A DNA stretch of 64,000 nucleotides. Origin: an uncultured candidate division Zixibacteria bacterium. Its GTDB lineage: Bacteria; Zixibacteria; MSB-5A5; UBA10806. How positions within the stretch are numbered: the stretch's first letter is position 1; each line of letters opens with the position of its first letter. The stretch lies in assembly GCA_963817915.1 (NCBI GenBank), contig CAWFQL010000003.1, positions 96,001 to 160,000 of the forward strand, written 5' to 3'. Both the position numbers and the translations under genes were made by a program. The notes beneath the pieces are model-generated. The model did not search any database. It was given only the letters and a program-made list of their open reading frames with translations, and had not been told where the DNA came from. Shown here one piece after another: positions 1 through 38,439 of the stretch.

Positions 1-1850
1 CCTTACGATTGCTATGGATGTCATCAGACTAATTATAATATGGTCCCGGACCCAAACCACGTGCAAAATAATTTTAATCATGACTGTACGCAATGCCATA
101 ATACTTCAGCCTGGACACCGGCATCATATGATCATAGCCAAACAAGATTCCCGTTGACCGGTGCCCATGTTGGACAGACATGTGTTGCCTGTCATGCCAA
201 TGGCTATAATAACACGCCATTTGACTGCTTTAGCTGCCACACAGGTAATTATAATTCGGCTACTGATCCCAACCATGTGACCAATAATTTTGACCATGAC
301 TGTACGCGATGTCATACATACTAGGTCTGGTCGCCTTCGACATTCAGCCATGGCTCGACAAGATTCCCGTTAACCGGCGCGCATGTTCCTCTTCAATGTA
401 TTTCTTGTCACGCCAACGGATATCAGAATACACCGTTGGATTGCTACAGTTGCCATGTGGGCAATTATAATTCGGTTACCGACCCCAACCATGTGACCAA
501 TAATTTCGACCATGATTGTACCCAGTGTCATACGACATCGGTCTGGAATCCATCGACATTTAATCACAGCTCGACCAGGTTCCCCTTAACTGGCGCGCAC
601 AATACGCTGCAATGCATTTCGTGTCATGCCAACGGATACCAGAATACGCCGTTGGATTGTTACAGTTGCCATGTCGGTAATTATAATTCCGTTCCGGATC
701 CTAATCACGTTACCAATAATTTCAGCCATGATTGCACTCAATGCCATACAACTGCGGGCTGGACTCCGGCGAATTACAATCATAGTCAAACGAGATTTCC
801 GTTAACTGGGGCGCATGTAAATCTTGCCTGCGTGGCCTGCCATGCCAATGGCTATCAGAATACGCCGTTCGATTGCTATAGCTGCCATCAGAATAACTAC
901 AATGGCGTCGTCGATCCCAATCACAACACCAATAATTTCAGCCACGACTGCACAGTATGTCACACTACATCCGGATGGACACCTGTATCGTTCAATCACG
1001 GATTGACGCAATTCCCGTTAACCGGGGCGCATGTAAATCTTGCCTGTGTTGCTTGTCACGCCAATGGATACCAAAATACGCCTATGGATTGCTATAGCTG
1101 TCACCAGAGCAATTATAATGGTGTTACGGATCCTAATCATGTCACCAATAATTTCAGCCATGACTGTACTATCTGTCATACGACCACAGCCTGGAATCCT
1201 TCGACATTCAATCACGGGCAAACCCAATTCCCGTTAACCGGCGCGCATGTGAGTCTTGCCTGCATATCCTGTCACGCCAATGGGTACCAAAATACGCCTA
1301 TGGATTGCTATAGCTGTCATCAGGGCAATTATAACGGTGTTACGGATCCTAATCATGTCACCAATAATTTCAGTCACGACTGCACCGTATGTCATACTAC
1401 TTCAGCCTGGACTGCCCGCGACATTTAATCATGGCACGACCAGATTCCCGTTGACCGGTGCGCATGTAAGCCTGGCCTGTATAGCCTGCCATGCCAATGG
1501 CTATCAGAATACGCCTTTCGATTGCTATAGTTGTCATCAAAGCAATTTCAATGGTGTCGTAGATCCAAACCACGTCACCAATAATTTCAGCCATGACTGC
1601 ACCGTATGTCATTCTACTTCGGCTTGGTCGCCGGCGTCATTCAACCATAATCAAACACAGTTCCCATTGACCGGAGCGCATACTACACTGCAATGTGTCG
1701 CCTGCCACGCCAATGGATACCAAAATACCCCGACTGCTTGTGTCAGCTGCCATCAGGCCGATTATAATGGCGCCACAAATCCGAATCATACCGCTCAGGG
1801 ATTTCCCACGCAATGCCAGCAGTGTCATACAACCGCTAATTGGACGCAAT
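1..1850 (+). repeat. Intragenic tandem repeat, 216-bp period, about 8.5 copies in the window
   Basis: Equivalent Cys codons start at 10, 226, 442, 658, 874, 1090, 1306, 1523 and 1739. The period is 216 except one 217 interval that contains the frameshift. Confidence 0.95.
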
Positions 1851-2083
1851 TAACTTATAACCATAATACTCAATATTTCCCAATTACTACCGGAAGGCAT
1901 GCTACCGTTTGGTCAACCTGTGCTACCTGCCATAATATTCCTGGAAATCTTGCGCATTTCGAATGTATCCTCTGCCATGAGCACAACCGCTCTGACACAG
2001 ATTCACAGCATCAGGGTAGGTCGGGTTATCAATATCTAAGCACTGCGTGCTACGCTTGCCATCCCAGAGGCAATGCCGGTTAG
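1..2083 (+). CDS. Giant multiheme c-type cytochrome built from 72-aa three-heme tandem repeats (5' truncated; in-frame TAG at 322-324 and +1 frameshift near 1412, probably sequence errors)
   Basis: Frame +1 is open from base 1 (PYDCYGCH...). It continues in the same frame past TAG 322-324 into ORF 436..1428, then into the frame of ORF 1256..2083. I count 29 CxxCH motifs. The FPLTGAH, DPNH and F/YxH motifs recur in every unit. Confidence 0.93.
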
Positions 2084-2092
2084 GTGTAGTAT

Positions 2093-2896
2093 ATGTCTGG
2101 CATGCGTATAATACTCATTATGGCAATTAGCCTTGCCACGGGAGTTCCCTGCTATTCACAGGAGAATCCTCATCGAGACTCCAAGCTCGATTGCCAGGAA
2201 TGTCATACCGCTTCAAGTTGGACCGATATCAAGTTTGATCATCAGAAGACCGGTTTTGTGCTCGATGGAAATCATTTGGAGGTTCCCTGCGTCTCATGTC
2301 ATTCATTGGTTGATTTCAATATAGTTTCAAAGGAGTGTGTTTTTTGTCATGTTGATATTCATCAGGGGAAATTGGCCCGTACTTGCGAACAGTGCCATTC
2401 GACAAGGGGATGGAATATTTTCAATACAACAAGAGCGCATGCGAATACGACATTCCCTCTGATTGGCGCGCACGCAAAGCTCGATTGCCGTTCCTGCCAT
2501 CTAAGCGAAATTGAAGGAGAGTATTCATTGCTTAAATCGGAATGTATATCTTGCCACGAGGCCGACTTTAATAATGCCCAAAATCCGTCCCATTCGGCAT
2601 TGGGATTCGGGACTCGCTGCAATGATTGCCATACGCTTTTATCCTGGCGCCCCGCCGATTTTTCACAGCATAATTCGTATTTTCCTATATATAGCGGGGC
2701 ACATGCCGGAAAATGGCGGAGTTGTTATGATTGTCATCCGACTCCGGGTGATTACGGAATCAGTACCATGACCTGTTTTTCCTGCCATGTTCATGACCAA
2801 GGGTCGACAGATTCTCGGCACCAAGAGGTCGCAGGATACGTTTATCAAAGCAGCGCCTGCTATAATTGTCATTCAAGCGGAAGCGCTGGAGGCTGA
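2093..2896 (+). CDS. Secreted decaheme c-type cytochrome, paralog of the upstream giant cytochrome
   Basis: N-terminal signal peptide, 10 CxxCH motifs and FDH..TGF.L.G.H / FPLIGAH motifs. Its C-terminal five-heme segment aligns by eye with that of the upstream gene. Confidence 0.93.
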   Translation: MSGMRIILIMAISLATGVPCYSQENPHRDSKLDCQECHTASSWTDIKFDHQKTGFVLDGNHLEVPCVSCHSLVDFNIVSKECVFCHVDIHQGKLARTCEQCHSTRGWNIFNTTRAHANTTFPLIGAHAKLDCRSCHLSEIEGEYSLLKSECISCHEADFNNAQNPSHSALGFGTRCNDCHTLLSWRPADFSQHNSYFPIYSGAHAGKWRSCYDCHPTPGDYGISTMTCFSCHVHDQGSTDSRHQEVAGYVYQSSACYNCHSSGSAGG

Positions 2897-2906
2897 GAGG
2901 TCTAAT

Positions 2907-4517
2907 ATGAAGGGATTATTAGTCAAAATCCTTGCAACGATAATATTCGCGCTTATTTTCCGGGTTGGAGCGTCGGCCGCTATCCATGTCCAATATCTTT
3001 CCCAGGAAGCGGTCTATATCGATGCCGGAATCGAAGACAGCCTTTCAATCGGCGATCAACTCGAGATCAGAAAAGGCGACAGCCTTATTGCTCAATTAGA
3101 AATTATCTTCGCGTCCGAGCATTCGGCTTCCTGCAAGATACTTAATTCGACAGGTACAATCGAAATCGGGGCTACCGTAAATATCACTTCAAGGGCGATC
3201 GTGGCCAAGCCGGCCCCGGCAGATTCTGTTGCGGATACGACTGCGAAAAAACTTGAGCCTGCGCCAATTGCAGTTGCGCCAAAGCCTAAGAAAAATTCTA
3301 CCCATTTCAGCGGGACTATTGCCTTGCAGACTTATAATTGGAACGATATCACTTCATCGAATCTTGATTTCTCCCAGCCGTCGGCGAGAATAAATATTAC
3401 CGCCCTGAAACTCTGGGGCACCGAGCTTTCATTTACGCTAAGATCGACCATCCGCAATGAACGAAGGACCCGCAGCTATAGCAGCTCTGTTCCCAAAAGC
3501 GAATGGCGCAATAGGGTATACCAACTTTCAATAGGGTATTCGGATGACAACGGGCCATTCGGGTTTGAATTCGGCAGAATAATCTCGAATAAAATCAGCG
3601 GTATCGGATATATAGATGGAATCCTTGTCCATCGCAGGGTGAGCAAATTGGTCAATATGGGAGTATTTGTAGGGACTCAACCCCAATGGCAATATTCCGA
3701 TTTTCAAACTTCGATCCAGAAATACGGATTTTATACTAATTACGCGCGAGGCGAATATGCCAAATCTCGTTATGAAGTGACCCTGGCGGCCGCGGGCGAA
3801 TATCATAGCAATATCGTCAGCCGTGAATTCATTTATCTTCAGAATAATCTCATTATTAAGGGCGATTGGAATATTTTTCAGAGCGCGGAATTGGATCTTA
3901 ATCGCGGATGGCGTAAAGAAAAATCGAAAATAGGCACATCTCTAACTAACTTCTACCTTTCCACCAGGAAACGAGTTACTGGCTGGCTTTCGGCGAGCCT
4001 GAGCTTTGATTCCCGTAAAAACTATTGGACCTATGAAATTCGTTCGATGGCCGAGCAGCTTTTCGATAGCAATGTCCGGCGCGGAGGCAGAGCGGATATT
4101 TCGCTGAGACTGCCTGGCAATTTCCAGCTTCTCGCGGGATTTGGCTTGCGGAAACGGGCCACGGAATCGGGCTCTACCTATTCTTATTCTGGGGCATTGA
4201 ATAAATCCAATATCCTCAATTCAAAGCTGGACATAAATATTCAGATGTCGGGATTTACCAACCCGCTTACAAACGGGTATAATGTATCCACGACTCTCGG
4301 TCGCTATTTCGGCAGGGGGAACTACCTGAGTATTGGATACAGCGGATACGTATATTCGATCCAAAATGGCGGTCCAACCCGCAGTAATACCGCATATCAG
4401 CTAAGCTCAATGATAAGCATTATCAGATCCGTATATTTTTCCGGTCAATATGAATACGACACTGGGGATGATACCAAAGGCCATCGAATAGTAGCGGAAC
4501 TCGGTTATCGTTTCTAA
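2907..4517 (+). CDS. Outer-membrane beta-barrel protein (putative porin of a porin-cytochrome conduit) with an N-terminal soluble domain and Pro/Ala/Lys linker
   Basis: ATG 2907 follows GAGAGG. Signal peptide MKGLLVKILATIIFALIFRVGASAA, alternating amphipathic strands, and C-terminal ELGYRF Bam-type signature. Starts 10 bp after the decaheme gene. Confidence 0.8.
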   Translation: MKGLLVKILATIIFALIFRVGASAAIHVQYLSQEAVYIDAGIEDSLSIGDQLEIRKGDSLIAQLEIIFASEHSASCKILNSTGTIEIGATVNITSRAIVAKPAPADSVADTTAKKLEPAPIAVAPKPKKNSTHFSGTIALQTYNWNDITSSNLDFSQPSARINITALKLWGTELSFTLRSTIRNERRTRSYSSSVPKSEWRNRVYQLSIGYSDDNGPFGFEFGRIISNKISGIGYIDGILVHRRVSKLVNMGVFVGTQPQWQYSDFQTSIQKYGFYTNYARGEYAKSRYEVTLAAAGEYHSNIVSREFIYLQNNLIIKGDWNIFQSAELDLNRGWRKEKSKIGTSLTNFYLSTRKRVTGWLSASLSFDSRKNYWTYEIRSMAEQLFDSNVRRGGRADISLRLPGNFQLLAGFGLRKRATESGSTYSYSGALNKSNILNSKLDINIQMSGFTNPLTNGYNVSTTLGRYFGRGNYLSIGYSGYVYSIQNGGPTRSNTAYQLSSMISIIRSVYFSGQYEYDTGDDTKGHRIVAELGYRF

Positions 4518-4565
4518 AGTTGATATTCATAGAGATGTTTAGAATTCAGGATTTTGTGAGGTAAT

Positions 4566-5900
4566 ATGGAATCAGACGCAATCTGGATATTCACGGTAAT
4601 ACTCATAGTAAGTATTTCCGCCCCATATTTTATAAAATTTCGCAAACGCCAGAAAATGGATATCGAACGGCGGAAAGAGGCGGAAATCTTGGGCATCAGC
4701 AAGCCTTCCAGCCAATATCCGATGATCGACTCCACTCTCTGTATTGGCTGCCGCACCTGTGTCGATGCTTGTCCCGAGCATGATGTGCTCGGTATCGTAT
4801 TCGGCAAGGCAATGGTTATAAACGGCCAGCGTTGTGTTGGACATGGCTACTGCGAACTCGTGTGTCCTGTTGGAGCATTGAAAGTGGGACTCGGCGATAT
4901 CAAAACTCGTCCCGATATTCCAGTCGTAGATGACAATAACCAATCCAATATTCCGGGCCTTTTTATCGCCGGTGAATTGGCCGGTCTTTCGTTGATCAGA
5001 AATGCTATAGATCAGGGAAGACGGGTTATAGAAAAAATAGCCGAAAATAATAATCGCTCAGCCAATGAAAATATTTACGATGTCATAATAATTGGAGCTG
5101 GTCCGGCGGGGCTTACTGCCTCACTTAATGCGATCAAAAACAAACTTTCTTACCTTCTAATCGACCAGCAGGCTCCGGGTGGTACGATTCTTCAATATCC
5201 CCGACATAAATTGGTAATGACCCAGCCTGTGGAAATTCCCCTTTATGGCTGGCTCAAGAAAGAAGAGTATGCCAAGGAAGACCTGCTGGATATATGGAAT
5301 AAAATATTGAATGACTTCAAGATCAATGTTCGAGTGGGTGAGAAGATCGAATCTGTCAGAAAAGAAGCGGAAGTATTCAAGGTTAAATCGCTTGCGGCCG
5401 AGTATTCCGCAAATCATGTGGTGTTATCGATGGGTCGCCGGGGCACTCCCCGAAAACTTGGCGTAACCGGTGAAGATCTTCCCAAGACTCTCTATCAGCT
5501 GCTCGACGCGCAATCGTATAATAACAATCATATTCTTGTTGTGGGCGGCGGCGATAGCGCTATCGAAGCGGCAGTTGGTCTTGCGCATCAGACCGGAAAT
5601 AAAATCACGATTTCTTATAGAAAAAGCACATTTGCCCGTGTTAAGAAGAAAAATGAAGATCTTGTCAAAAAAGCTATCGCTGAAAAGAAAGTCAGAGCTA
5701 TTTTCAATTCGGAAGTTCTCGAAATCAGAGATAAGAATGTCAAACTAAAAGTAGGAGAAGACATAGTCGAAATACTCAACGATTTTGTCTTCGTGTTTAT
5801 CGGCGGCGAGCCTCCTATCAAAATGCTTAAGGAGATGGGCATATTATTCGGCGGCGAAGCGCCGGTTATCGAAGTTCCGCCTGTCCCGGCAATGTCTTAA
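4566..5900 (+). CDS. Membrane-anchored ferredoxin fused to an FAD/NAD(P)H oxidoreductase of thioredoxin-reductase fold
   Basis: N-terminal TM helix. Ferredoxin motifs CIGCRTCVDACP and CVGHGYCELVCP. Flavoenzyme motifs IPGLFIAGE, DVIIIGAGPAG, VVGGGDSA and SYRK. Confidence 0.88.
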   Translation: MESDAIWIFTVILIVSISAPYFIKFRKRQKMDIERRKEAEILGISKPSSQYPMIDSTLCIGCRTCVDACPEHDVLGIVFGKAMVINGQRCVGHGYCELVCPVGALKVGLGDIKTRPDIPVVDDNNQSNIPGLFIAGELAGLSLIRNAIDQGRRVIEKIAENNNRSANENIYDVIIIGAGPAGLTASLNAIKNKLSYLLIDQQAPGGTILQYPRHKLVMTQPVEIPLYGWLKKEEYAKEDLLDIWNKILNDFKINVRVGEKIESVRKEAEVFKVKSLAAEYSANHVVLSMGRRGTPRKLGVTGEDLPKTLYQLLDAQSYNNNHILVVGGGDSAIEAAVGLAHQTGNKITISYRKSTFARVKKKNEDLVKKAIAEKKVRAIFNSEVLEIRDKNVKLKVGEDIVEILNDFVFVFIGGEPPIKMLKEMGILFGGEAPVIEVPPVPAMS

Positions 5901-5922: not shown

Positions 5923-5957
5923 AAAAAAGGCGGCACTCAGGCCGCCTTTGAAAAAAA
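5923..5957. terminator. Intrinsic terminator between convergent genes (best for the minus strand)
   Basis: AAAGGCGGC-ACTCAG-GCCGCCTTT hairpin preceded by an A run. Confidence 0.7.
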
Positions 5958-5968
5958 TCTGTCTTCAT

Positions 5969-8900
5969 TTACTTCAACAATAACATCTTGTTGGTTTTGG
6001 TGAAATTAGCGGTTTCGATTTTGTAGAAATAAAGCCCGGTCGCGACTTTTCGGCCCGATTCATCCTTGCCATCCCAAACAACCTGCTTATAGCCGGCAGC
6101 CTGTCTTTGATCCACAAGGTTTTTCACCTTCTGACCCATAATATTGAATACTACAATTCTCACTTCGGAATCGACCGCGAGCCCATAAGAAATCGTGGTT
6201 GAAGGATTGAATGGGTTCGGATAGTTTTGCGATAGGAAGAACTTCTTCGGAGCGGTGATATCATCGTTCAACCCTGTGATTGTCAGCGCCTTTCCAGAGC
6301 CGGCGGTTGATCCGAATGATTCGGCGGTTAGATTTCCTTCGGAGAATAGAGCGCTAACGTAATACCAATAAAGATTAGTATCGGCAAGATCAATATCCGA
6401 ATAGCTCGTTGCCTGAATCGGAGAATCGTTCAGCTTCGAAAAATCACCATTGGGCCAACGGCTTCTGTAAATATTAAATCCGGCGAGATTAGGATTCGTT
6501 AATGTATCCCAGCGAACCTCGATTAAATTAGAAATATTGTTCGATGCTGAAAGACTGGATGGTATCGGGCATCGAGTGAGATGTAATGTCTCCGTCTCGA
6601 TAAGCTGGTTGGCTACCACCTGGATACTTTCCTGATAGGCAGGGTAATATCCAAGGGCTTCGGCGGTGAGGCTTATTGTTCCGGGCGGTACTTCTTTAAT
6701 AAAGAACCTGCCATCGCTGGCTGAAATTCTCCTTTGACCTGTGCTCGCATGAATTTGAGCGTCGCCATTCTGGCCGCTTCCATCAAGATCGACACTTCCC
6801 CTTACTGAGCCGCGTCCGGTACTGGTGGTAATCAGCGTGACTGCGCCGTCAATCAAGGTCGCTCCTCCCGGAGCGTAATAATTGTCGTGCGTAAATTCCA
6901 GCCCGCGTTGTTCATCGTAGCTCTCGAATCCTACGGACGCGTAACCCTCTCCAGAGTCGGTGTTATTAACATCTCTGTAAATAAAAAGGATATCGGAATC
7001 GCCTGTAAGGCTCGGATAATAGGCTGGATCCATAATAACCATCTGGAATGTTTCGTACTGGAAGGTATTCGTATTGGTTAATTTCAACCACTCTATATAA
7101 AATTTATGGTTCACCGAATCATACCATTTGTAAACACCTAAGTGCGTTCCGTCAATTCTGAGATCATCCCAGAACGGCGAAATCTGTCCGCGCGCGTTAC
7201 CCGGGTCAGGAATTGGCCAATTGAAGAAGTTGGCCCAGTAATTTCCCTGCATATCCATTGGAGTAGTATCCAACGCTGCGAAACCATTGATACAAACTAT
7301 CATCGCCCCGTAATCTTGGCCATAATACTTCATGTTGAATGGCAATGTCACGAGAACCGATTTGTCATCCAACTCGGATCCATAATTCAAACGAGTACCC
7401 TGCCCGCCGCTATCCGGGCTGATTTCAACCCATTGATAAGTCGGCATCATTGCGTATGCGCTGTCCATACGATCATACATGTAATAGCCATAGGAATCCG
7501 GCCCAACCGGGTCCCTTGACGAAATTCGTCCAACTGTTAGTGTAAATGGAATCGATGACTTTGAACCCGAAAGGGTTGATATATGAAGAGTCAGATTTAA
7601 TTTTTTGCCCTTAAAGGCAGTCGAATCGCATGTGATACTGACGAGAGAACTGGAATTGTCGCCGGAGCCGCCGATTGAAATATCACCGAAATTGGCAATT
7701 GATCCAACGGCATTCGCATAATCATCATCGGTTGTCACAATACCGGTAACACCCTGGGCATTAAGCGATCCGCTATTGGATAAAAATATCTTGAGATTGG
7801 CTGTTTGACCCGGACCGATAAGGCTGTCACCCTCGGGGATTATAGCTCTGGTGACTGCGAATTTTGGAGCCTTTACCGGGAATTCGATCATAGTTTGCCA
7901 GCTGTCATTATTTTGGTCTCTGATTGTCAATTTCTGCCTGACAGTTTGACCATCGGAAGCGGCGGGATTTACATATACCACAAATGGCGCTTCTGATGCT
8001 CTCGATTCGCCCGGCGCCAGATTGCCGTAATTGCGAATACCGTCATAGACAACAGAATTCCCATCGGTTGATTCCAACTGCGCGGATACATTCGTAGCTG
8101 AAATATCCGTACCGAAATTCTTGATTGAGACATTTAATTCGATTGTCTCGCCAGGCGCGGCTAAATGATCGCCGTCTCCGTGAGAAAAGCCGTCGGTATC
8201 ATCATCGATATAAATGGAGTCCAATCCTACTGCCAGATCGGATGTCGCTATTTCCACATTGGTTTGGTAAGGAATAAGATTTTGTCCGGAAACGGTAAGC
8301 TTCATTGAGCCGGGAGTATTGGCGTCAAATATTAGCGTGACATTTCCCGATTCATCGGTTTTATCGACACTGAATACTTCTTCGGTTGTCCCAATAGTTT
8401 TGATCAATGTCACATATGCGCCTGAAATCGCGTTGCCCGCTGAATCTATCACTGAAGCATTAAAGCTGTTTGTTCCCAGTGCCACAGTATCGAGATGTGT
8501 AACGTTTATGCTTATTGGAATTTTAGTGCGTAATTCAAGTTCAGGATCGCCCAGCATATTATATGTATTGAAATATTGTTGTATCATTCCTCCCGGGGCG
8601 GTCTGTCTTGGGAATGTCCAGTAATCCTGAAGCTTTCCTCTCACTGCCGCGGCGGCAAAATGATAGACATTCTCTTCAAATATCCCGAAGAAATAGCCGA
8701 CCATAATGGGGTTATTCCATCTGGTATGGGTGTCGTGATCGGAAACCCCATAAAACGCCGGTCCGCCTTTCAAGCTATCAGGACTACGTCCCATTCTAAT
8801 CCAGGTCTCGCCAAAACATTCACCGCCGAAATCACCGGTGCCGCAAGTCAATGGAGACAGAACGCCAAGTTTTTGATTGTCCTGTAAATTGAGCAAATCG

Positions 8901-10285
8901 TAACTCGTCATCGATGGGCCGGCCCAGCCGTCAGTTCCTCCAGCCCCGCGATATTGAATAAAACCGATTCCAGCGTTGAAAAGAGAAGGCAGCCTCCAGC
9001 CGGAATCGAATACGGTGTCAACTCGGACAAAACCATGCCTGAGCTGAAGCTGACGGACCCAGAGAGTAGTCAATCTTGACGATTCATAATACACATAAGC
9101 CACCGAGAGCCCTCTGATCCAATGCTCCGGATCGCGCATGAGCGGATACTTTTCATACTTGAGAATCTTTGAAAGTGCCACTCTGGCCTGGGACATAGAG
9201 TCTACCGACATGCGAGCGATAAAGATATCCGGGATATAATCCGAACCATCTACGCACGCGTATTTATTATCGGACGCGTAAATGTTGCTTCCGACAATAT
9301 AGGGATAATCCGGCACGACAAACATATGATCGCGATCACCGACTATCATAACATACTCCGGAGGAATCTCCCAGGAAGCGTAAGCTGTGTCAAGAAAGGC
9401 CTTTATCTGTTCCTTACTTGGAGACCCGGTTGGTCTAATTTCGGTTGTAGGAACAATTCTGACCGGATACCCCTTTTGATGCTTCCATTGAGCCACTGCT
9501 TTTACAGTATCAACCAGTGTCGGTCTGCATATTATAACGTATCCCCCGCGCTTAACTTCAACATTATCCATTGCCTGGTCGAAATTGGCGAACATAGCCT
9601 TATAAATTGGATAAAATCCCTCGGATAGATATCTATGATGGACTGTCTTGGGATTGATTACTTCGCCATCATAGCTGATATCAACAGAAATGTCCCGGTA
9701 TACGCGCAATACCTTTTGAACAGGATTATACTGCGCCGGATAGAGTGCAATCCGCACAAAACGAACATCGCGCATAATCTGCGGATCGGAAGCCTCCGCA
9801 AGATTGCCGGGATAAAACGCATCTCTTGCGTAAGTCTGCAGGTCAATTGTGAATGGTACGGCTGACGCACCGGGAGTTTCCGAAGGGGATGGCTGAACCG
9901 GGGCAAGTTCGATATTCGGCAAATCATCATAACCGGAATATGTGACTGTCAATCTTACTCCTGCCTGGTCGGGGATGATTATGTTGGCTGTCAACGCTGG
10001 AAGATCGGGCTTACCATCTTCAGCCAATTCGCTTGGCGTAATAAATTCGCCAACCGGCAGGTCAAGTTTCTTATAATTGCTGCCGCCAAGAGAAATATCG
10101 TTTAGTGCCACAGCCGGCAAATTCAAATTCAACGAGGTTTTGGAACCCAAGTTCCTCACCTCTAATTTCGACGATTCCGCCGAAATATCTGATAGAACGC
10201 GGATGTTTTGAGAGGATAATGACTGCGAAATCATTAAAAACAGCAGAAACACAGTCAAGATGCACGCTTTAGCCTTGATACTCAT
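5969..10285 (-). CDS. Large secreted C25 (gingipain-like) peptidase-family protein with propeptide, Ig/FN3-like domains and C-terminal FlgD/T9SS-type sorting domain
   Basis: ATG 10285 with GGAGG SD and a signal peptide. Motifs WKHQKG, YVMIVGD, DYIPDIFIARMS and YNMLGDPEL. C-terminus LSQNYPNPFNPSTTISY...WDGKD...GLYFYK. Confidence 0.88.
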   Translation of the reverse strand: MSIKAKACILTVFLLFLMISQSLSSQNIRVLSDISAESSKLEVRNLGSKTSLNLNLPAVALNDISLGGSNYKKLDLPVGEFITPSELAEDGKPDLPALTANIIIPDQAGVRLTVTYSGYDDLPNIELAPVQPSPSETPGASAVPFTIDLQTYARDAFYPGNLAEASDPQIMRDVRFVRIALYPAQYNPVQKVLRVYRDISVDISYDGEVINPKTVHHRYLSEGFYPIYKAMFANFDQAMDNVEVKRGGYVIICRPTLVDTVKAVAQWKHQKGYPVRIVPTTEIRPTGSPSKEQIKAFLDTAYASWEIPPEYVMIVGDRDHMFVVPDYPYIVGSNIYASDNKYACVDGSDYIPDIFIARMSVDSMSQARVALSKILKYEKYPLMRDPEHWIRGLSVAYVYYESSRLTTLWVRQLQLRHGFVRVDTVFDSGWRLPSLFNAGIGFIQYRGAGGTDGWAGPSMTSYDLLNLQDNQKLGVLSPLTCGTGDFGGECFGETWIRMGRSPDSLKGGPAFYGVSDHDTHTRWNNPIMVGYFFGIFEENVYHFAAAAVRGKLQDYWTFPRQTAPGGMIQQYFNTYNMLGDPELELRTKIPISINVTHLDTVALGTNSFNASVIDSAGNAISGAYVTLIKTIGTTEEVFSVDKTDESGNVTLIFDANTPGSMKLTVSGQNLIPYQTNVEIATSDLAVGLDSIYIDDDTDGFSHGDGDHLAAPGETIELNVSIKNFGTDISATNVSAQLESTDGNSVVYDGIRNYGNLAPGESRASEAPFVVYVNPAASDGQTVRQKLTIRDQNNDSWQTMIEFPVKAPKFAVTRAIIPEGDSLIGPGQTANLKIFLSNSGSLNAQGVTGIVTTDDDYANAVGSIANFGDISIGGSGDNSSSLVSITCDSTAFKGKKLNLTLHISTLSGSKSSIPFTLTVGRISSRDPVGPDSYGYYMYDRMDSAYAMMPTYQWVEISPDSGGQGTRLNYGSELDDKSVLVTLPFNMKYYGQDYGAMIVCINGFAALDTTPMDMQGNYWANFFNWPIPDPGNARGQISPFWDDLRIDGTHLGVYKWYDSVNHKFYIEWLKLTNTNTFQYETFQMVIMDPAYYPSLTGDSDILFIYRDVNNTDSGEGYASVGFESYDEQRGLEFTHDNYYAPGGATLIDGAVTLITTSTGRGSVRGSVDLDGSGQNGDAQIHASTGQRRISASDGRFFIKEVPPGTISLTAEALGYYPAYQESIQVVANQLIETETLHLTRCPIPSSLSASNNISNLIEVRWDTLTNPNLAGFNIYRSRWPNGDFSKLNDSPIQATSYSDIDLADTNLYWYYVSALFSEGNLTAESFGSTAGSGKALTITGLNDDITAPKKFFLSQNYPNPFNPSTTISYGLAVDSEVRIVVFNIMGQKVKNLVDQRQAAGYKQVVWDGKDESGRKVATGLYFYKIETANFTKTNKMLLLK

Positions 10286-10658
10286 TTGACCTCCACTAAG
10301 CCTTAAAAAAATAAACATAAACATATCCCATAATTTTAGGCGAGAATATCCCCCCAGCGATTTCTCGTTTACCAATGGATTAAACAACTTAATCCGCTTG
10401 GCTCGTTCCACTAATATAATCGATAATTTTTTACTTAGTAAATTATGTCATTGAAATTTTGATTTAAATTGGGAAATTCTCAAAATTTGCAACCCCATTT
10501 TTGAGACTATTATTGAGTGGGCCGCCCACGTTAACCTGATGAATATTTTGCGGTTATGGAAATTATTGGCGGTTCATTTAATGCGGTGATAATTATACGA
10601 AATAGAAATGGGGCGAATAATGTTCGCCCCGAATTACTCCGACTATTGAAAAATCAGA

Positions 10659-16100: not shown

Positions 16101-17219
16101 CTACTGTGCGGTGTTGACAACATTATCATGGCATTGACGGCATCCGGCTGTTCTCATTTCCTCTGAGTTGTCCGCTGGATTCCATCTCATACCAAATGCG
16201 TTGGTGGAGCCGTGCGCCTGATGGCACGAGAGGCAAAAGACCTCGTTATTATAAGCTACCTGGGATGCTGCATTGAAATCATGCGCTTCCCTGACCAGGA
16301 ATGGCATACGTCCAACTGAAAATTCCGAGCCCTGACCATTATACCAATTTGTACTATCGGCTGTGTAAACCGGATCGCCGGGTAAGCCGCTAATCGGGCG
16401 ATATGCGCCATATTCGGTATTCGAGACTGGATGGCGGTTCCAATGGAAATCGAGATCGGGGTTTGTATATCGTCCACCATTTGTACCAGCATCCAATAAT
16501 GTGTGATGGCAATCGATACAGATATTGGTTACCTCACGCCAGGTTGGTTCGCCACCTGCATCGCCGGGCTCGCCGTACTTTACATTATCCTGCTGATATT
16601 TCTGAAGGCCTGTCGCGCCGGGATTCACAAATGCGACAATCGGAGGCTCGCCGCCGGGCCATGATGCCCATTGCAGATTGCGATAATAACCGGTGCCGTG
16701 AGGAGCATGACAATCAACGCAATCAACAGTTGCGGTCCTGAATTCTCCTCCAAAATGACATCTCAGACAAAGGTCGCCTGGAGCAGTCCCAATATTATGG
16801 CCATTGTCGTTGATAGCGCCGGGATCGCCGAATTGTCCCGCGGCCCGAAGGGTGCCGCCGTTGACATCGGAGCCCACAACGTCAGGGACATTAACTTTGT
16901 CTTGATGACAATTAAGACACAATGCCAACGCGCTCGTGGCTTTCAAAAGCTTGTTTGTCGGCGGTTCCATGACAAATGGATAAGTGAAGGGGTCCTGATA
17001 GCCATAATTATGCTGCATCGAGCCATGCATGACATGGCAATCGGAACAGACCAGGTCGGCGCCATTATGATAGCCGGGCGAAAATGGCGGCGTATCGAGA
17101 AGCATCCCGGGATTATGTCCGCCGCTTCCGGGTCTATGAATATCAATACCGTCCATCGGTCCGCCCGCCAACGCTACGGCGCTGACCAGGAAGAAAACAA
17201 CTGTGATGAGTTTACCCAT
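16101..17219 (-). CDS. Secreted OmcS-like multiheme cytochrome c with 7 CxxCH motifs
   Basis: AAGGAAGG SD and signal peptide ending AVALA. Motifs YHNG..VCSDCHVMHGS, LCLNCHQ, GHNI, CLRCH, CVDCHAPHG..YR, CIDCH...RHP, VFCLSCHQAHGS and GCRQCH. Confidence 0.88.
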   Translation of the reverse strand: MGKLITVVFFLVSAVALAGGPMDGIDIHRPGSGGHNPGMLLDTPPFSPGYHNGADLVCSDCHVMHGSMQHNYGYQDPFTYPFVMEPPTNKLLKATSALALCLNCHQDKVNVPDVVGSDVNGGTLRAAGQFGDPGAINDNGHNIGTAPGDLCLRCHFGGEFRTATVDCVDCHAPHGTGYYRNLQWASWPGGEPPIVAFVNPGATGLQKYQQDNVKYGEPGDAGGEPTWREVTNICIDCHHTLLDAGTNGGRYTNPDLDFHWNRHPVSNTEYGAYRPISGLPGDPVYTADSTNWYNGQGSEFSVGRMPFLVREAHDFNAASQVAYNNEVFCLSCHQAHGSTNAFGMRWNPADNSEEMRTAGCRQCHDNVVNTAQ

Positions 17220-17357
17220 ACCCATACCTTCCTTATCCGGAAATTTATTGGAAAAGAAATCCTTATTCTTCAACCAATTAATTATCATTATCTTTTCCCC
17301 ATCAAATACATGCTATCAAAAAAGCCGCAATATCCTAAGCTTGCCCTTTTGCCCCGT

Positions 17358-18960: not shown

Positions 18961-20346
18961 CTACAAATTCTGCCCGATATGCCTCTTGATGAATTTCCCG
19001 TGGCCAATTTCGCCGACGAATTTGCCCTTTTGAGCCACTATTTTCCCGCGGCTGATAGTCGTATCGGGGTAGCCGGTCAGCTTGAAATTCTCGAATGGCG
19101 ACCAGTCGCAATTGGTCTGCAGATTCTTATGAGACAATGTCACTTTTCTCAGCGGATCGAAAATCACCAGATCAGCATCGGAGCCGACTGCGATCGTGCC
19201 TTTCTCAGGGTATAGTCCCATCAGCTTGGCGGGATTGGTGCAGAGATTTTTCACAAGCTGTGATTCAGTGATCCGTTTCTTGCCAACTCCATAGCTGTAC
19301 ATCAACGGTAGCAACGTTTCCACACCAGGCAGTCCGAATGGGATTTTCGTGAAATCACCCTGCCACATTGCCTTTTGCTTGGTCGTAAACGTGCAGGTAT
19401 CGGTCGCGATAGTCGAAATATCACCATCGGCAATCGCCTGCCATAATCTATCGGAATCTACTTTTTTCTTAATCTGCGGGCAGGTCGCGTAGAGATGGCC
19501 GTTCGGTTTTTTGAAAACTGAATTGTCTAAAAGCAGATACTGCGGGCAGGTCTCGGCATAGACATTCAGGCCGCGCGCCTTGGCCTTTTTGATAATCTCA
19601 GCGCCTTCGGCCGTTGACATATGTACGATATACAATTTGCCATTAGTCGCTTCGGCCCAGGTAACCGCGCGCTGGATTGCCTCGGCCTCGACATAATTAG
19701 GCCTTGAAAGCACATGGGCATAGGCGCCATGTTTTTTCATATCTTTCGGATTATGGAAACGGTTGATCAGCAAATCCAAAACCCTGACCGATTCAGCATG
19801 CACTCCGACCATTCCGCCGAAAGAGCCCGTCTCCTCCAATGCGTCAAAAAGCGCGTCGTCGTCGCTGATCATCCCTTCCTTGGCGTAAATCATAAACATC
19901 TTGAATGTGGTAAAACCATCGGCGGCGAGCTTCTTTAATTCGCCTTTGGTTTTGTCATTCCAGTCTGTTGGCACGGCATGCAATGAATAATCGATAGCGA
20001 CTTTGCCATCAGCTTCGGCCATTCTGGAATCGACTGCCTCTCTGATAGTCTTGCCTTTTTTCTGAATGGCGAAATCGATAACGGTAGTTACTCCGCCGCA
20101 GGCTGCCGCCTTAGTGCCGTTCTCGAAATCGTCCGCAGACACTGTTCCGCAAAATGGCAACTGCAAGTGGACATGAACATCGATCGCGCCCGGGAAGATG
20201 ACCATTCCTTTGGCGTCGATTGTCTTCTTAGCATCGCCGGGAAGCGACTGCGCTATGGCCTTGATTCTCCCTTTTTCGATACCGATATCGGCTCTGTAGC
20301 TTCCCTCGGTCGTGACAATTTTTCCGCCGGTAATTTTTAGATCCAT
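18961..20346 (-). CDS. hydA: Dihydropyrimidinase
   Basis: PGAIDVHVH, GTKAAACGGVTT, HAE, VHMS, ETCPQYL and TDTC motifs; GGAGG SD; operon context. Confidence 0.93.
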   Translation of the reverse strand: MDLKITGGKIVTTEGSYRADIGIEKGRIKAIAQSLPGDAKKTIDAKGMVIFPGAIDVHVHLQLPFCGTVSADDFENGTKAAACGGVTTVIDFAIQKKGKTIREAVDSRMAEADGKVAIDYSLHAVPTDWNDKTKGELKKLAADGFTTFKMFMIYAKEGMISDDDALFDALEETGSFGGMVGVHAESVRVLDLLINRFHNPKDMKKHGAYAHVLSRPNYVEAEAIQRAVTWAEATNGKLYIVHMSTAEGAEIIKKAKARGLNVYAETCPQYLLLDNSVFKKPNGHLYATCPQIKKKVDSDRLWQAIADGDISTIATDTCTFTTKQKAMWQGDFTKIPFGLPGVETLLPLMYSYGVGKKRITESQLVKNLCTNPAKLMGLYPEKGTIAVGSDADLVIFDPLRKVTLSHKNLQTNCDWSPFENFKLTGYPDTTISRGKIVAQKGKFVGEIGHGKFIKRHIGQNL

Positions 20347-20371
20347 TGTTCCTCCATTGGTCAAATTGCTA

Positions 20372-21599
20372 TTATGCCGCCACTAACGAAACACAGTCCC
20401 AAACAGGGCATACCTGAACACAAAGCGAGCATCCTGTGCATTTCTGCTTGTCGACTTTCGGAATCCTGTCCGCGCCGGATGATATCGCCTGATAGCCGGC
20501 GTCGCGGCAAGAGACCACGCAGCGATCGCATTTTACGCAGGCTGATTCGTTGATCGATGAGACCAATCGCTTTTTTCGTTCGAGCCCTATATGGTCGGTT
20601 AGTTTCGGCAATGATTTTCCAACAAAATCCTTTATCGTTCCGAAGTCATGGTCTTCCATGAATCCGGAAAGCCCTTCTTTCAATTCATCGATAATCCCGA
20701 AACCGCGAAACATGACCGCCGTGCAGATTTGTAACGACGATGCTCCCAGCAGAATAAATTCCGCGGCATCGCTCCAGGTCTCGATTCCCGCCGATACCCG
20801 AAATAGGTACATGCAATTCCGAGGCTATATTAGCCACCGCCTTCAACGCGATCGGCTTGATGGCCGGACCGGAATATCCGCCGTGAGTACTCTTGCCGAA
20901 GACATTCGGGTAGGGAGTCAATGTTTCCAAATCGATACCCGTGATAACGGCTACAGTATTAATCGCCGAAATTGCATCGGCGCCGCCATCGACAGCCGCG
21001 CGAGCCGGGACTCGGATATCGGTTATATTGGGTGTCATCTTGGCAATCACCGGAATCGTGCAGGCCTGCTTTACCCATGATGTCGCCGTCTTGACGATTT
21101 CCGGATTCTGTCCGATAGCGGCCCCCATCCCTTTTTCGGGCATTCCATGGGGACATGAGAAATTGAGCTCCAGCATATCTGCTCCAGCCGCCTGGCACAT
21201 CCTAGCCAACTCCTGCCAGCCGGTCTTGTCTTTGCCGCCCGCCATGATACTGGCGATTAGCAGATGCTTGGGATAGCTTTTCTTGATATCCTCGATCTCT
21301 TTCAGCCAGATATTCAACGGCCTATCGGTTATCAATTCGATATTTTGAAGGCCATACAGCTTTTTGGCCTCATCGCTTTTTCCGGGGAACGACAGCGATG
21401 CCAGCCGCGGAGTGACATTGGCCATGAGATCGCGGTCATGCCCCAATGTCTTAGTGACCGCCCCGCCCCATCCGGCCTCGAACGCTCTTTTGATCATCTC
21501 GCCCGTTCCGGTCGGCGGCGCGGATGATAGCATGAACGGGTTCATCATTTCGAAGCCGCAGAAATTGGTTTTGAGATCTATCTTTTTTGCGATTCTCAT
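20372..21599 (-). CDS. preA: Dihydropyrimidine dehydrogenase subunit PreA; frameshift near 20788
   Basis: NPFMLSSAPPT, NIELITDR, ELNFSCPHGM and GGYSGPAIKPIAL. The C-terminal 2x[4Fe-4S] motifs are in the second frame. Confidence 0.92.
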
Positions 21600-22925
21600 G
21601 TCGATCCTCCCTTGCCGGATCCTTGTGTTGTCCGATTTTTCAGGTATTCGTCTATTCCATGAGCCGCGCGTCTTCCCTCGGCCACAGCCTGAACCGCCGT
21701 CGCCCCGCCATTGACCGCATCGCCTCCCGCGTAAATGCCCGGCATGGATGTCGCGCCTGTTTCTTTATCTATAACAACCAGGCCGCGTGAATCTGTTTTT
21801 ATTTTATCGATTTCTTTAAATGTCGCTCCCTGGCCTATTGCCAGAAGAACATCATCCACCATTATTTCCTCGTCGGAGCCATCTATAATGACAGGTATAG
21901 GACGGCCTGATTTGTCGGGTTCGCCCGGTTTGGTCTTTTTGAATATCGCCTTGATTTCGCCGTCATGTATCTGGAATTTCGAGGGTGCATAATTGAATTT
22001 AAAAATCACGCCGGATTTTTTCGCCGAATCAATTTCCGATTTGAATGCCGGCATATCCGTCTCGCCGCGCCTGTAATAAATCCTTACATTCACTCCGGAA
22101 ATTCGTGCGCTTTGGGCGGCATCGATAGCGGTATTGCCTCCGCCGATGACGATCACATTTTTGCCAAGAGTAATTACAGGCGGCTTATCGTGCAATTCCG
22201 CGATCCTGCGATCCTTGAGAAATGTAACCGCTTGATAAATATGTTCGAGATGAGCGCCTTCGATATCAAGATCAATAGGCTTGTATGCTCCAACTCCGAT
22301 AAATATGGCATCATGTTTTGCTTGAATTTCGGCCAGGCTATTTATTTTGGAATTCGTGATAATCTTGGCTCCCATGGCCTTTATATATTCGATTTCATCG
22401 TTGACAATTTCTCGATTGAGGCGATATGATGGTATCCCGTATGTCAAAATCCCTCCCGGCAGATCTTCAGCTTCGTGGATTTCAACATTATATCCCAGAC
22501 GGCACAACTCGAATGCCGCCGCAAGCCCCGCCGGGCCCGAGCCGATTACTCCGACTGACATTCCGTTAGGCTCATCCGCTGACAGCAGGCTCATGCCTTG
22601 TTGCCTGTCATATTCGGCAACAAATCTCTGCAATGCCCCAATCTCGATCGGCTTTCTGCATTTTGGTGGTGCAGCGAAATTCGCAAAGCTCGCCGACCGG
22701 GCAAATCAAGGCGCATGTTCCGGCCAGGACATTATATTCGCGGACAGTCTTTATCGCCCCGCGAAAATTTCGCTGGGCTATCTGACGAATGAATTTAACT
22801 ATATCATTCGATGCCGGACAGCCATCGCGGCAGGGTGCGTCATTGCACGATAGACAACGCGAAGCCTCGGCCACCGCCTCCTGAGGAGTCAGGAGCGGAG
22901 GATGATGATCATTCTCAGATGCCAT
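21596..22925 (-). CDS. preT: Dihydropyrimidine dehydrogenase subunit PreT (GltD-like); frameshift near 22654
   Basis: EASRCLSCNDAPCRDGCP in the first frame; GSGPAG, GGGNTAID and PGIYAGGD in the second. Confidence 0.9.
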
Positions 22926-22937
22926 TTCAGCCTTGTA

Positions 22938-24218
22938 TTATGCGACCTTTTTAAATACCGAATCGAGAATCGCCAACGCCTTATCAATATCGCCGGTTTC
23001 GATATTGAGCGGGGGAGTGATTCTAAGGACATTGCCGTATAATCCGCCCTTGCCGATTAAAAGTCCGGCTTCTTTCGTCAATTCGAATATCTTCACGACT
23101 GTATCGGAGTCGGGTATCTTCTTATCGCCGACAATCTCGACACCGATCATCAGTCCCATCCCGCGAACATCGCCGATCTTCTTATATTTCTTTTGCATTT
23201 GACGAAGCGCGCCGAAGAAATAATCACCATTCTTGGCAACACGGTCGAGAAGCTTCTCATTCTCCACAACCTCGATTGTCGCCAGCGCCGCTGTGCAAGA
23301 AACCGGATTTCCGCCGAATGTCGAAATCGAAAGGCCGGTCATCGAAGCCGCCACTTCCGGCGTGGCAATTGTCCCGCCGATCGGGAAACCGTTGGCCATA
23401 CCCTTGGCGAATGTCATTATCTCCGGCTCTACACCCCAATGCTCTATACCGAACATCTTGCCGCCGGTCCGTCCAAAGCCTGTTTGTACTTCATCGCAAA
23501 TAAAGACGCCGCCGTATTTTCGAATTATATCGACAGCGACTTTGAAATATTCTTTCGGGGGGGTAATAAATCCGCCGACACCCTGTATCGGTTCAGCTAT
23601 AAATCCGGCAATTTTACCGGATGTGGTTGTCTGAATCATTTCCTCTAAATCGTGGGCGCAGGCCAGATCGCAAGCCGGGTATTCGAGATGGAATGGACAT
23701 CGATAGCAATACGGATTATGAAGGTGCTTGATGCCGGGCACGGTGCTTCCCACCTGACGCCATTTGCTATGCGCTGTCAAATTCTGCGCCAGCACCGAAC
23801 GGCCGCTATAAGCGTGACGAAGCGCGATTATCTCATCGCAACCGGTGAATTTTTTGGCCGCCAGGACACCTGTTTCATCGGCTTCGGTGCCGGAATTGGT
23901 GAAGAAGCTCTGTTTTAATTTGCCGGGTGTTATCTGCGCAAGTTTCTCCGCCAGCTGAACCTGCGGAATTGTCTGATATAATGTCGATGTATGCTGAAGC
24001 TTGCCTATCTGCTCGGTTACTTTGGAATTCACATGCGGATTCGAATGCCCCAGCATGGTTGTCAATATTCCGCAAAAGAAATCGAGATATTCTTTGCCGT
24101 CGTTATCGTACACATATTGATTCTTTCCCGATTTCGCTATTATGGGCTCGGCGTAGTAATTGGCCACACAGGGCATCAGGAATTCTTTATTTTTCTTTCT
24201 AATTTCAGAGGAATCCAT
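22938..24218 (-). CDS. Class III PLP aminotransferase (probably beta-alanine aminotransferase, AGXT2-like)
   Basis: NSGTEA, AEPIQGVGG, DEVQTGFGRTG, FAKG and STFGGNP; sits in the pyrimidine operon. Confidence 0.9.
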   Translation of the reverse strand: MDSSEIRKKNKEFLMPCVANYYAEPIIAKSGKNQYVYDNDGKEYLDFFCGILTTMLGHSNPHVNSKVTEQIGKLQHTSTLYQTIPQVQLAEKLAQITPGKLKQSFFTNSGTEADETGVLAAKKFTGCDEIIALRHAYSGRSVLAQNLTAHSKWRQVGSTVPGIKHLHNPYCYRCPFHLEYPACDLACAHDLEEMIQTTTSGKIAGFIAEPIQGVGGFITPPKEYFKVAVDIIRKYGGVFICDEVQTGFGRTGGKMFGIEHWGVEPEIMTFAKGMANGFPIGGTIATPEVAASMTGLSISTFGGNPVSCTAALATIEVVENEKLLDRVAKNGDYFFGALRQMQKKYKKIGDVRGMGLMIGVEIVGDKKIPDSDTVVKIFELTKEAGLLIGKGGLYGNVLRITPPLNIETGDIDKALAILDSVFKKVA

Positions 24219-24245
24219 AAGATCATGCTCCAATCTATGTTGTCA

Positions 24246-25124
24246 TTACGGCAATAGCCGTTCCAAATCACCATAAGTTTCCGGTCTGCGGTCACGGTAG
24301 AATTGCCAGACATTGCGGACTTCCAATATCAAATCGAAATCGATTTCGGCGACTACGACTTCATCGGTATCTCGCTTGGCCTGCGCGATTATCTTGCCGC
24401 GCGGATCGCAGAAATAGCTTTTGCCGTAGAATTCGCCGATATTCCAGGGCATCTCACGACCGACACGATTAATCGCTCCGATAAAATACCCGTTGGCAAC
24501 GGCATGCGCCGGTTGTTCGAGTTCCCATAAATATTCCGAAAGCCCGGCGACTGTCGCCGATGGATTGAATACAATTTCCGCGCCATTCATTCCGAGTATA
24601 CGCGCGCCTTCCGGGAAATGACGATCATAGCAGATATAAACTCCGACCATTCCGTATTGAGTCTTGAAAACAGGATATCCCAGATTGCCGGGCTTGAAAT
24701 AGAATTTTTCCCAGAATCCCGGCTGTACATGGGGTATATGATTCTTTCTGTATTTTCCGAGATATGTGCCATCGGCGTCGATGACTGCCGCGGTATTATA
24801 GTAGACGCCCGCCATGACACTCTCATAAATCGGCACCACTATCACCATGCCATGCTTCTTGGCGACTTCCTGCATAAGCTTCGTTGTCGGGCCGTCGGGG
24901 ATTGGTTCGGTCAGGGCGTACCATTTTGTGCTTTGCTCCGCCGCGAAATATGGGCCGTAGAAAAGCTCCTGCATGCAGAGGATTTTTACATTTTTGCTGG
25001 CCGCCTGCTCGATTAGCTTTAAATGTTTTTCTATAGCGTCTTTTTTAATTTTTTCAACCGGGTCATCGATTTTAAATGGAGGGTTTATAGACTGAATCAA
25101 ACCACAGATTACTTTCCGTGCCAT
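24246..25124 (-). CDS. Beta-ureidopropionase (N-carbamoyl-beta-alanine amidohydrolase, nitrilase family)
   Basis: E-K-C triad in QELF, RKNHIP and ICYDRHF; FWEKFYF; operon context. Confidence 0.9.
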   Translation of the reverse strand: MARKVICGLIQSINPPFKIDDPVEKIKKDAIEKHLKLIEQAASKNVKILCMQELFYGPYFAAEQSTKWYALTEPIPDGPTTKLMQEVAKKHGMVIVVPIYESVMAGVYYNTAAVIDADGTYLGKYRKNHIPHVQPGFWEKFYFKPGNLGYPVFKTQYGMVGVYICYDRHFPEGARILGMNGAEIVFNPSATVAGLSEYLWELEQPAHAVANGYFIGAINRVGREMPWNIGEFYGKSYFCDPRGKIIAQAKRDTDEVVVAEIDFDLILEVRNVWQFYRDRRPETYGDLERLLP

Positions 25125-25144
25125 CGTGATATACCCCTTTCTTA

Positions 25145-26607: not shown

Positions 26608-26758
26608 TGGGCCTCCATGCGCCAGAGGGTGAATACTATAATTCAATGCAAAACGGATATTACGAAATAATATCCCCCAAACCAAATGATTTTTAAGAAT
26701 TTAGCAATTATGCCCAATGAGAAATGTAATTAGTCCGAATCCATCTTGCGAGATTAAA

Positions 26759-38372: not shown

Positions 38373-38439
38373 TTAAGAAGAGTATTTAATATTCCGTTAC
38401 CGCTTGACAGTGATTGTCAAAATTGATTTTATGTTATCC

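Follow-up and report, generated by a model that had tools for sequence, protein, structure and literature searches.

A PCC3-type porin-cytochrome operon with a putative NADPH entry enzyme in a Zixibacteria genome

The window analysed here, 64,000 nt in length, is the stretch 96001-160000 of contig C3 in the genome of an uncultured Zixibacteria bacterium (source genome G000); positions upstream of it carry negative numbers, i.e., the contig position minus 96000. Its left edge cuts a six-gene operon, beginning 5 kb upstream, that encodes in order an inner-membrane protein (IMP), a 20-heme cytochrome, a 61-heme repeat cytochrome, a decaheme cytochrome, a 22-strand barrel and a ferredoxin-flavoenzyme. 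From the genes, their motifs, the barrel fold and the co-occurrence of the parts across genomes, all of which we observe directly, we lean slightly towards reading this operon as a PCC3-type trans-envelope conduit with a dedicated cytoplasmic NADPH entry enzyme, which would act as an NADPH-oxidase-like outlet and not in respiration. The link from NAD(P)H to the conduit is suggested by the co-occurrence and the motifs taken together.

The operon and its entry module

The first gene encodes a five-helix, cytochrome-b-like, His-rich IMP of the PCC3 type (C3:90933-91838, -5067 to -4162; about 301 aa, start uncertain), and the second a Lys-rich cytochrome c with 20 CxxCH motifs (C3:91826-93577, -4174 to -2423). 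Both lie outside the window, as does the 5' part of the giant repeat cytochrome c, the putative wire of the system, which starts at about C3:93580 (about -2420); the 3' part of this gene occupies nt 1-2083 of the plus strand and holds 29 of its 61 CxxCH motifs. It is followed on the same strand by the decaheme cytochrome c (2093-2896), the outer-membrane barrel protein (2907-4517) and the membrane-anchored flavoenzyme (4566-5900). The initial annotation had described the part inside the window as a unit of four co-oriented genes separated by 9, 10 and 48 bp, comprising a cytochrome with at least 29 heme motifs, a decaheme, a barrel ending in YRF and a membrane ferredoxin-flavoenzyme. The spacing is correct (2083/2093, 2896/2907, 4517/4566), and so are the 10 CxxCH motifs of the decaheme, the barrel and the N-anchored ferredoxin-flavoprotein. 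The 29 motifs are also present, but in a gene that is not one open frame and extends upstream to 61 motifs, and the upstream sequence turns the four-gene unit into an operon of six; in all, the frame breaks and two upstream genes had been missed.

The IMP has five transmembrane (TM) helices, SGIFG on TM4, a 133-aa basic loop, WLDIH-x13-H on TM3 and WHVIH-x13-H on TM5 (H104/H118 and H274/H288). SGxxG and the two HX13H pairs are kept in all 73 relatives and both Trp in 53, and the loop has a mean net charge of +7.8 among relatives. By the positive-inside rule the loop would be cytoplasmic, with one His pair, and a heme, on either side of the membrane. A PDB sequence search with the IMP profile gave no match. 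There are weak family matches at E≤0.1 to PF01794 (Ferric_reduct; 35 of 73 IMPs, the best at 6.3e-5, the source-genome IMP itself not among them) and to Ni_hydr_CYTB (28 of 73).

The flavoenzyme begins with a TM helix followed by KFRKRQK, from which the same rule suggests that its body is cytoplasmic, and continues with a 2x[4Fe-4S] ferredoxin and permuted FAD and NADPH domains like those of thioredoxin reductase (TrxR) and YpdA. Its second cluster motif is CxxHxxCxxxCP, with His in place of one Cys in 73 of 73 paired enzymes; GxGxxG and CxxHxxC are kept just as strictly, and GGG(D/N)xA in 70 of 73. GGGDSA in the window enzyme, together with a conserved YR...R.K patch, is what we take, from TrxR motifs, to mark an NADPH-type enzyme. 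The best PDB sequence relatives are Bdr/YpdA, TrxR and TrxR-type ferredoxin:NADP+ reductase (FNR) (7a7b, 7a76, 6gas), relative to which the enzyme is circularly permuted: the segment that ends these proteins here precedes GxGxxG. The YpdA/Bdr model TIGR04018 scores 172.6 bits, below its cut-off of 339.9. Thioredoxin reductase itself was rejected as an identity, the redox-active CxxC being found in the NADPH domain of 0 of 73 enzymes and nowhere after the ferredoxin in any of them. A complex prediction for IMP and flavoenzyme from 73 paired rows scored 0.30, against a mark of 0.32, and counts neither for nor against a contact.

The two proteins travel together. The counts that follow cover kin genomes, which are not independent, and are given without a statistical test. 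Of 41 related genomes, 14 have the IMP (one copy being cut by a contig end), and exactly these 14 also have the flavoenzyme in full length and a barrel that matches strongly; a fifteenth has only a distant 690-aa flavoprotein. In the phylum of the source genome the barrel is found in 66 of 201 genomes, and 67 loci were fetched: all five core genes (IMP, 20-heme cytochrome, wire, porin and flavoenzyme) are present in 50, contig ends truncate another 13 (10 with barrel and flavoenzyme adjoining, 3 without flavoenzyme), and 4 have wire and porin only (L127, L128, L129 and L163). Over the 54 uncut loci, flavoenzyme and IMP are jointly present in 50 and jointly missing in 4. For three of these four, neither gene was found anywhere in the genome, and since the three belong to one genus they count as one event; the fourth locus sits in a genome that also bears the full cluster. 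The flavoenzyme gene directly precedes the IMP gene in 8 of the 50 complete loci, and directly follows it in Emticicia and in several metagenome contigs. The pyridine-nucleotide enzyme that the initial annotation had named as a co-encoded partner is thus tightly linked to the conduit across loci, and the synteny is conserved, the decaheme being optional.

Beyond this phylum, the IMP was found in 46 of the 71 genomes searched in a second one, to which the Calditrichaceae genome G041 belongs, and plasmid pEMTOL02 of Emticicia oligotrophica DSM 17448 carries ccs, IMP, flavoenzyme, 23-heme, 40-heme and barrel genes, the fused ccs maturation gene standing at the head of the operon. Emticicia was the only full match in a search of a plasmid collection. 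The closest named homologues carry the labels Zixibacteria and Calditrichota, hence the term Zixibacteria-like for the host. Inside the operon of one Calditrichia genome lies a gene that we take to be asparagine-synthetase-like (L008:5727-7484), and in another a cluster that we take to encode a nitrate-reductase-like molybdoenzyme lies near it (L019:117-5767). On an Alteromonas macleodii plasmid (L029:5974-9457) an FNR-type FAD/NAD/2Fe-2S protein, a distant HX13H relative of the IMP and a 7-heme cytochrome stand a short way ahead of a hydrogenase cluster. This distant IMP thus adjoins a flavoprotein unrelated to ours, which we count in favour of NADPH feeding.

The cytochromes and the barrel

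The giant cytochrome has about 1500 aa, with its 61 CxxCH motifs spread over four breaks in the frame. Its body is built of 216-bp units, each encoding 72 aa with three CxxCH motifs and three further conserved His (FNH, GAH, PNH), which would be enough for bis-His ligation of the hemes of the unit. Fifteen aligned units show a mean nucleotide identity of 70%, and two of them have a single extra base. Asn and Thr each amount to about 13%, and a 367-aa stretch contains no Lys or Glu. A PDB sequence search with the repeat region gave no match, and no lipoprotein or secretion tag was recognised by eye. An intact counterpart exists in G008, a genome of the same family (L015), where a 58-heme gene is followed by decaheme, barrel and flavoenzyme.

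Heme numbers in this family mostly go up in steps of three: of 73 intact wire-family genes with 9-73 hemes, chosen by a head-and-cap pattern among the fetched loci, 62 follow the rule 10+3n, and the 61 of the giant fit as well. The decaheme is 39% identical to the N-terminal part of the giant and also to its C-terminal part, and we read it as the repeat-less (n=0) paralogue of the giant. The initial annotation had envisaged it in a complex with the barrel; the role of core barrel partner we reject: a separate decaheme is found in just 3 of 67 own-phylum loci (L012, L014 and probably L113) and is absent from most. The 20-heme upstream cytochrome is far more constant, with 20 motifs in 80 of 86 relatives and 23 in Emticicia.

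Two side observations concern these cytochromes. In all three of the operon (the two upstream and the one at 2093) the signal-peptide cleavage site, as placed by eye, is immediately followed by a Gln, which recalls the N-terminal pyroglutamate habit of Bacteroidota. The wires of the loci that have neither IMP, 20-heme cytochrome nor flavoenzyme (L127-L129 and L163) count 30-48 hemes; those of L127-L129 (35-48) break the 10+3n rule, and the three genomes tested among the hosts of these four loci make menaquinone.

The barrel protein consists of a small N-terminal beta domain, a linker and a plug-less barrel, and ends in ELGYRF. The AlphaFold2 model, built from 113 sequences, has a pLDDT of 89; in it the beta domain spans 70 residues, the linker is flexible and the barrel counts 22 strands and no plug. 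A single-sequence fold reached a pLDDT of 31. The best structural matches to this model are TonB-dependent barrels (FyuA, Z 18.1, rmsd 5.0, 350 aligned), and the alignment with MtrB (6r2q_B) is no closer than that of barrels in general (Z 14.0, rmsd 6.6, 330 residues). MtrB has 26 strands. Calculated geometrically, with the shear numbers assumed, the backbone diameter would be about 40 Å for 22 strands compared with 48 Å for 26, and a thin heme chain might fit into the former. The barrel matches no Pfam or NCBIfam family, though these libraries may not hold the OmbB/ExtB families, and no Geobacter-type porin stands among the fold matches listed. In the ESM Atlas barrel and IMP match only unnamed clusters, and the porin profile matches 991 clusters at E≤1e-30. 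Those profile searches, in Pfam/NCBIfam and in the genome, agree with the initial annotation that the porin-cytochrome conduit is unlike MtrCAB. Some barrel-family proteins or frames are longer, 700-1100 aa, possibly with extra N-terminal domains (L086; P0307, P0323 and P0383), and in L086 the barrel gene stands before the wire gene.

Breaks in the giant gene

The giant gene is interrupted by frameshifts near -1755, -711 and 1412 (the last a +1 shift) and by an in-frame TAG at 322-324. Recoding of TAG was rejected as unneeded: the giant itself ends in TAG, and the frameshifts demand another cause anyway. As a background, 318 proteins from 400 kb of G008 were compared with the source assembly, and the 217 matched genes give 17 candidate frameshifts and 6 internal stops in 209 kb, some of which are G008 errors or shadow frames. 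From these 23 candidates about 0.5 breaks are expected in 4.5 kb, where the giant has four. The assembly is nevertheless error-prone: frame changes affect a tuf copy and recA, of which a single gene was found, and gyrA, within the window, is split. The breaks in the giant are in our judgement quite likely assembly errors as well: all units retain their three CxxCH motifs, the total of 61 obeys 10+3n, and repeats are, as is generally known, often polished worst. It is less likely, by a wide measure, that the giant is a true pseudogene in the source genome and that its intact decaheme paralogue now serves the barrel, as the excess over background would suggest, together with the fact that one break is a nonsense codon and the remaining five operon genes are open.

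Other genes of the window are split by frameshifts too, i.e., gyrA (27041-29495), an ABC transporter gene (38404-40737) and a stretch that reads as a pyrimidine-degradation cluster (18961-26685), and these splits are probably assembly errors.

Mechanism and alternatives

The link between enzyme and wire that the initial annotation was missing is the upstream cytochrome-b-like IMP, whose gene lay outside its view. In the scheme that we infer, which extends to heme binding by the IMP, all protein contacts, locations, cofactor preference, direction and substrate, NADPH would reduce the FAD of the flavoenzyme, and its two [4Fe-4S] clusters would hand electrons one at a time to the b heme on the cytoplasmic side of the IMP (H104/H274). 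The electrons would next pass to the periplasmic-side heme (H118/H288), to the 20-heme periplasmic cytochrome, and then to a wire-family cytochrome, either the giant with its 61 hemes or the decaheme paralogue, which would sit in the 22-strand barrel and extend to the outside. By our own reasoning, electrons moving outward through the IMP would follow the membrane potential and so consume it, much as happens in NADPH oxidases and ferric reductases. Because outward flow would spend this potential, the likely job is not energy-conserving respiration but that of an extracellular reductase or redox sink, for Fe/Mn minerals, humics or partner cells. In its fullest form the proposal would be a widespread quinone-independent outlet, in which a split NADPH-oxidase-like module (permuted ferredoxin-NADPH flavoenzyme plus dihaem IMP) feeds electrons directly from the cytoplasm to a covalent single-chain wire of 10-73 hemes in three-heme steps and reduces minerals, humics or partner cells, in Zixibacteria-like, Calditrichota and Bacteroidota hosts, some of them without known quinone synthesis; this we consider possible but hold tentatively.

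Several points weigh against the preferred reading as a whole. One genus keeps wire and porin although it has no entry module. As to the breaks, their rate in the giant lies above the assembly background, so real decay in this strain is possible. Within the window's family, 4 of the 9 genomes that bear the system have a menA-like gene, the menaquinone pathway occurs in 5 of 14 system-bearing genomes, and the source genome encodes two NuoH (complex I) as well as a cluster, C17:42275-54200, that we take to be an alternative complex III with an oxidase. Because of the two NuoH and this cluster, the source genome probably has a quinone pool, through salvage or an unrecognised route. No experiment on any member of the family was found in the accessible parts of the literature, in which He et al. 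take the same IMP type to be quinone-active (PMC5566968).

The best of the alternatives is an ordinary PCC3, in which electrons pass between the IMP and the quinone pool and the flavoenzyme plays an accessory part, as an NADPH:quinone or NADPH:ferredoxin oxidoreductase charging that pool, or has some co-regulated job. The proposal of He et al. points this way, as do the four genes with which proteobacterial PCC3 has been published, the quinone-dependent complexes of the source genome and the weak Ni_hydr_CYTB matches of 28 of 73 IMPs. We still consider it unlikely, since IMP and flavoenzyme are jointly present and jointly lost, their genes adjoin in several lineages, and the IMP has a conserved basic face that would be cytoplasmic. 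A survey of the known menaquinone ring pathway also speaks against it: in the window's family, menB, menD and mqnA/D were found in none of 14 genomes (9 with the system), and UbiD was not found in the source genome. As support for quinone-free feeding, this survey is suggestive only.

The same wiring could also run inward, from extracellular donors to NADP+ reduction for biosynthesis. According to the accessible accounts, iron oxidisers are among the hosts of PCC3, and one of them, Sideroxydans CL21, up-regulates the IMP when oxidising iron; TrxR-type FNRs are among the PDB relatives of the flavoenzyme. However, electrons would have to climb the membrane potential, for which we estimate from standard potentials that donors below about -450 mV are needed, and natural Fe(II) donors lie far above this value, so that inward flow is very improbable. 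The weakest alternative, that there is no through-conduit and the cytochromes form a periplasmic or surface electron store, or that IMP and flavoenzyme supply reductant for the maturation of heme-rich proteins, could draw on the fused ccs gene in Emticicia and on the giant's want of a visible export tag, but is likewise very improbable, given the dedicated plug-less barrel that follows the wire in essentially every locus, the 35- to 48-heme wires that exist without IMP and flavoenzyme (L127-L129), and the location of the source genome's maturation genes elsewhere.

To our knowledge, all characterised conduits draw on the quinone pool. NADPH feeding, if true, would set this form of extracellular electron transfer apart energetically, and for the present hosts the PCC3 model now in print would have to be revised. 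Such giant heme counts are already in print; an NADPH-type entry enzyme with a conduit is the part that we did not find in the accessible literature. The system is common, given the porin and IMP frequencies in the two phyla, its three-heme repeat would be a natural length-tunable wire, and Emticicia oligotrophica, a cultured carrier with the whole set on one plasmid, makes direct testing possible.

Neighbouring genes and other clusters

A single terminator had been proposed for the operon. A GC-rich hairpin does lie at 5926-5949, between the operon and a convergent gene, and is a plausible shared terminator of undefined strand, but the terminator scan scores it on the minus strand only. The promoter scan is at chance level (34 found, 29 expected). 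The convergent gene (5969-10411, minus strand) encodes a 1480-aa C25-family peptidase with a propeptide and a FlgD-Ig or sorting-like C-terminal domain, and a lone seven-heme cytochrome of the doubled-CxxCH type lies at 16101-17288 (minus strand). Elsewhere in the source genome, a second large cluster (C17:236075-253500) combines a 1039-aa cytochrome with 42 hemes and several others with 5 to 13 hemes, alongside NHL-like proteins and a possible barrel of 564 aa. C16:133870-137458, with a decaheme, a 518-aa possible outer-membrane protein and a hexaheme lipoprotein-like gene, is a candidate porin-cytochrome unit without a PF11854 match.

Comparison with known systems

Published systems are compared here from the accessible parts of their sources. 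PCC3 was defined as a conserved cluster of IMP, periplasmic multiheme cytochrome (MHC), extracellular MHC and porin (He et al., 2017, PMC5566968), as in Sideroxydans ES-1 (IMP Slit_1446, cyt-p 1447, cyt-e 1448, porin 1449). For PCC3 and PCC4 alike, the IMP is given SGXXG on TM4 and WX3HX13H on TM3 and TM5; that of PCC3, with five TM helices in about 300 aa, is proposed to be a quinone-active cytochrome b; the same paper reports repeat-built MHCs of 63 and 85 hemes and unnamed redox proteins beside related IMPs. The periplasmic MHC of PCC3 has about 21 hemes (21-27 in Gallionellaceae). Other sources present PCC3 as four genes in Proteobacteria, experimentally untested (PMC9900912, Hoover et al.; 10.1101/2025.02.27.639646; PMC11429942; PMC13386937).

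The present operon has the same order of IMP, periplasmic MHC, extracellular MHC and porin, if its cytochromes sit where we place them, and its IMP carries all the defining motifs (SGXXG, two WX3HX13H, five helices, about 300 aa). The 20 motifs of its putative periplasmic MHC are one below the published range of 21-27, and its outer MHC is repeat-built, of low complexity and rich in small residues, with about 24 aa per heme (published, 22-39). The porin has 22 strands, as predicted for Leptothrix cholodnii, and an extra cytochrome beside the porin is known from some Leptothrix (PMC13386937). The differences are that the published systems are described with proteobacterial hosts, four genes and a quinone link, whereas the present ones have Zixibacteria-like, Calditrichota and Bacteroidota hosts and an extra conserved gene for a ferredoxin-NADPH flavoenzyme. 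The distinct conduit class proposed in the initial annotation is therefore not upheld, and its interpretation survives in part: the system is a PCC3 variant, assigned by gene set, order and IMP motifs.

PCC4 and the clusters in Table S6 of He et al. (PMC5566968) likewise encode an HX13H membrane protein alongside a multiheme cytochrome and one more, unnamed redox protein, which in Dechloromonas, Gallionella and Leptothrix has 412-425 aa. PCC4 differs in its periplasmic cytochromes of 4, 5 and 10 hemes and in having no extracellular MHC, compared with 20, 61 and 10 motifs here, and most Table S6 clusters are without a porin, unlike ours. A further set of sources, in their accessible parts, describes other or unnamed porin-cytochrome clusters or none (PMC3903129, PMC5317091, PMC6137239, PMC7399161, PMC5615132, PMC11475568, 10.64898/2026.05.27.727921), among them the EET1-4 clusters of the last. 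The Kublanov and Castelle papers, as far as accessible, do not describe the present cluster, and no description of such a flavoenzyme paired with such a conduit was found in the mainly openly accessible literature.

MtrCAB, MtoAB and PioAB also join a barrel to multiheme cytochromes, with a decaheme beside the barrel gene. They differ in that the present barrel has no MtrB_PioB match (a profile search for PF11854 found none in the source genome), in that the decaheme scores 16.4 bits against TIGR03508 (DmsE/MtrA family), where the cut-off is 192.2, and in that the operon has no CymA-type partner.

For the flavoenzyme, YpdA/Bdr and the TrxR-type FNRs give the best FAD and NADPH domain matches and share the absence of CxxC. 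The present enzyme falls below the TIGR04018 cut-off of YpdA/Bdr, and differs from both groups in adding a membrane anchor and the 2x[4Fe-4S] domain and in that the C-terminal FAD segment has moved ahead of GxGxxG.

For the entry module as a whole, there is a likeness to the NADPH oxidase/ferric reductase (FRD) superfamily and to MsrQ with Fre, where two HX13H pairs bind transmembrane b hemes and a cytoplasmic NAD(P)H flavoprotein stands alongside the b-heme membrane part. The present system likewise has two HX13H pairs and an NAD(P)H flavoprotein that would be cytoplasmic. It differs in that this flavoprotein is separate, permuted and of the TrxR type with ferredoxin clusters, and not a fused FNR-type domain, and in that the output would be a cytochrome wire.

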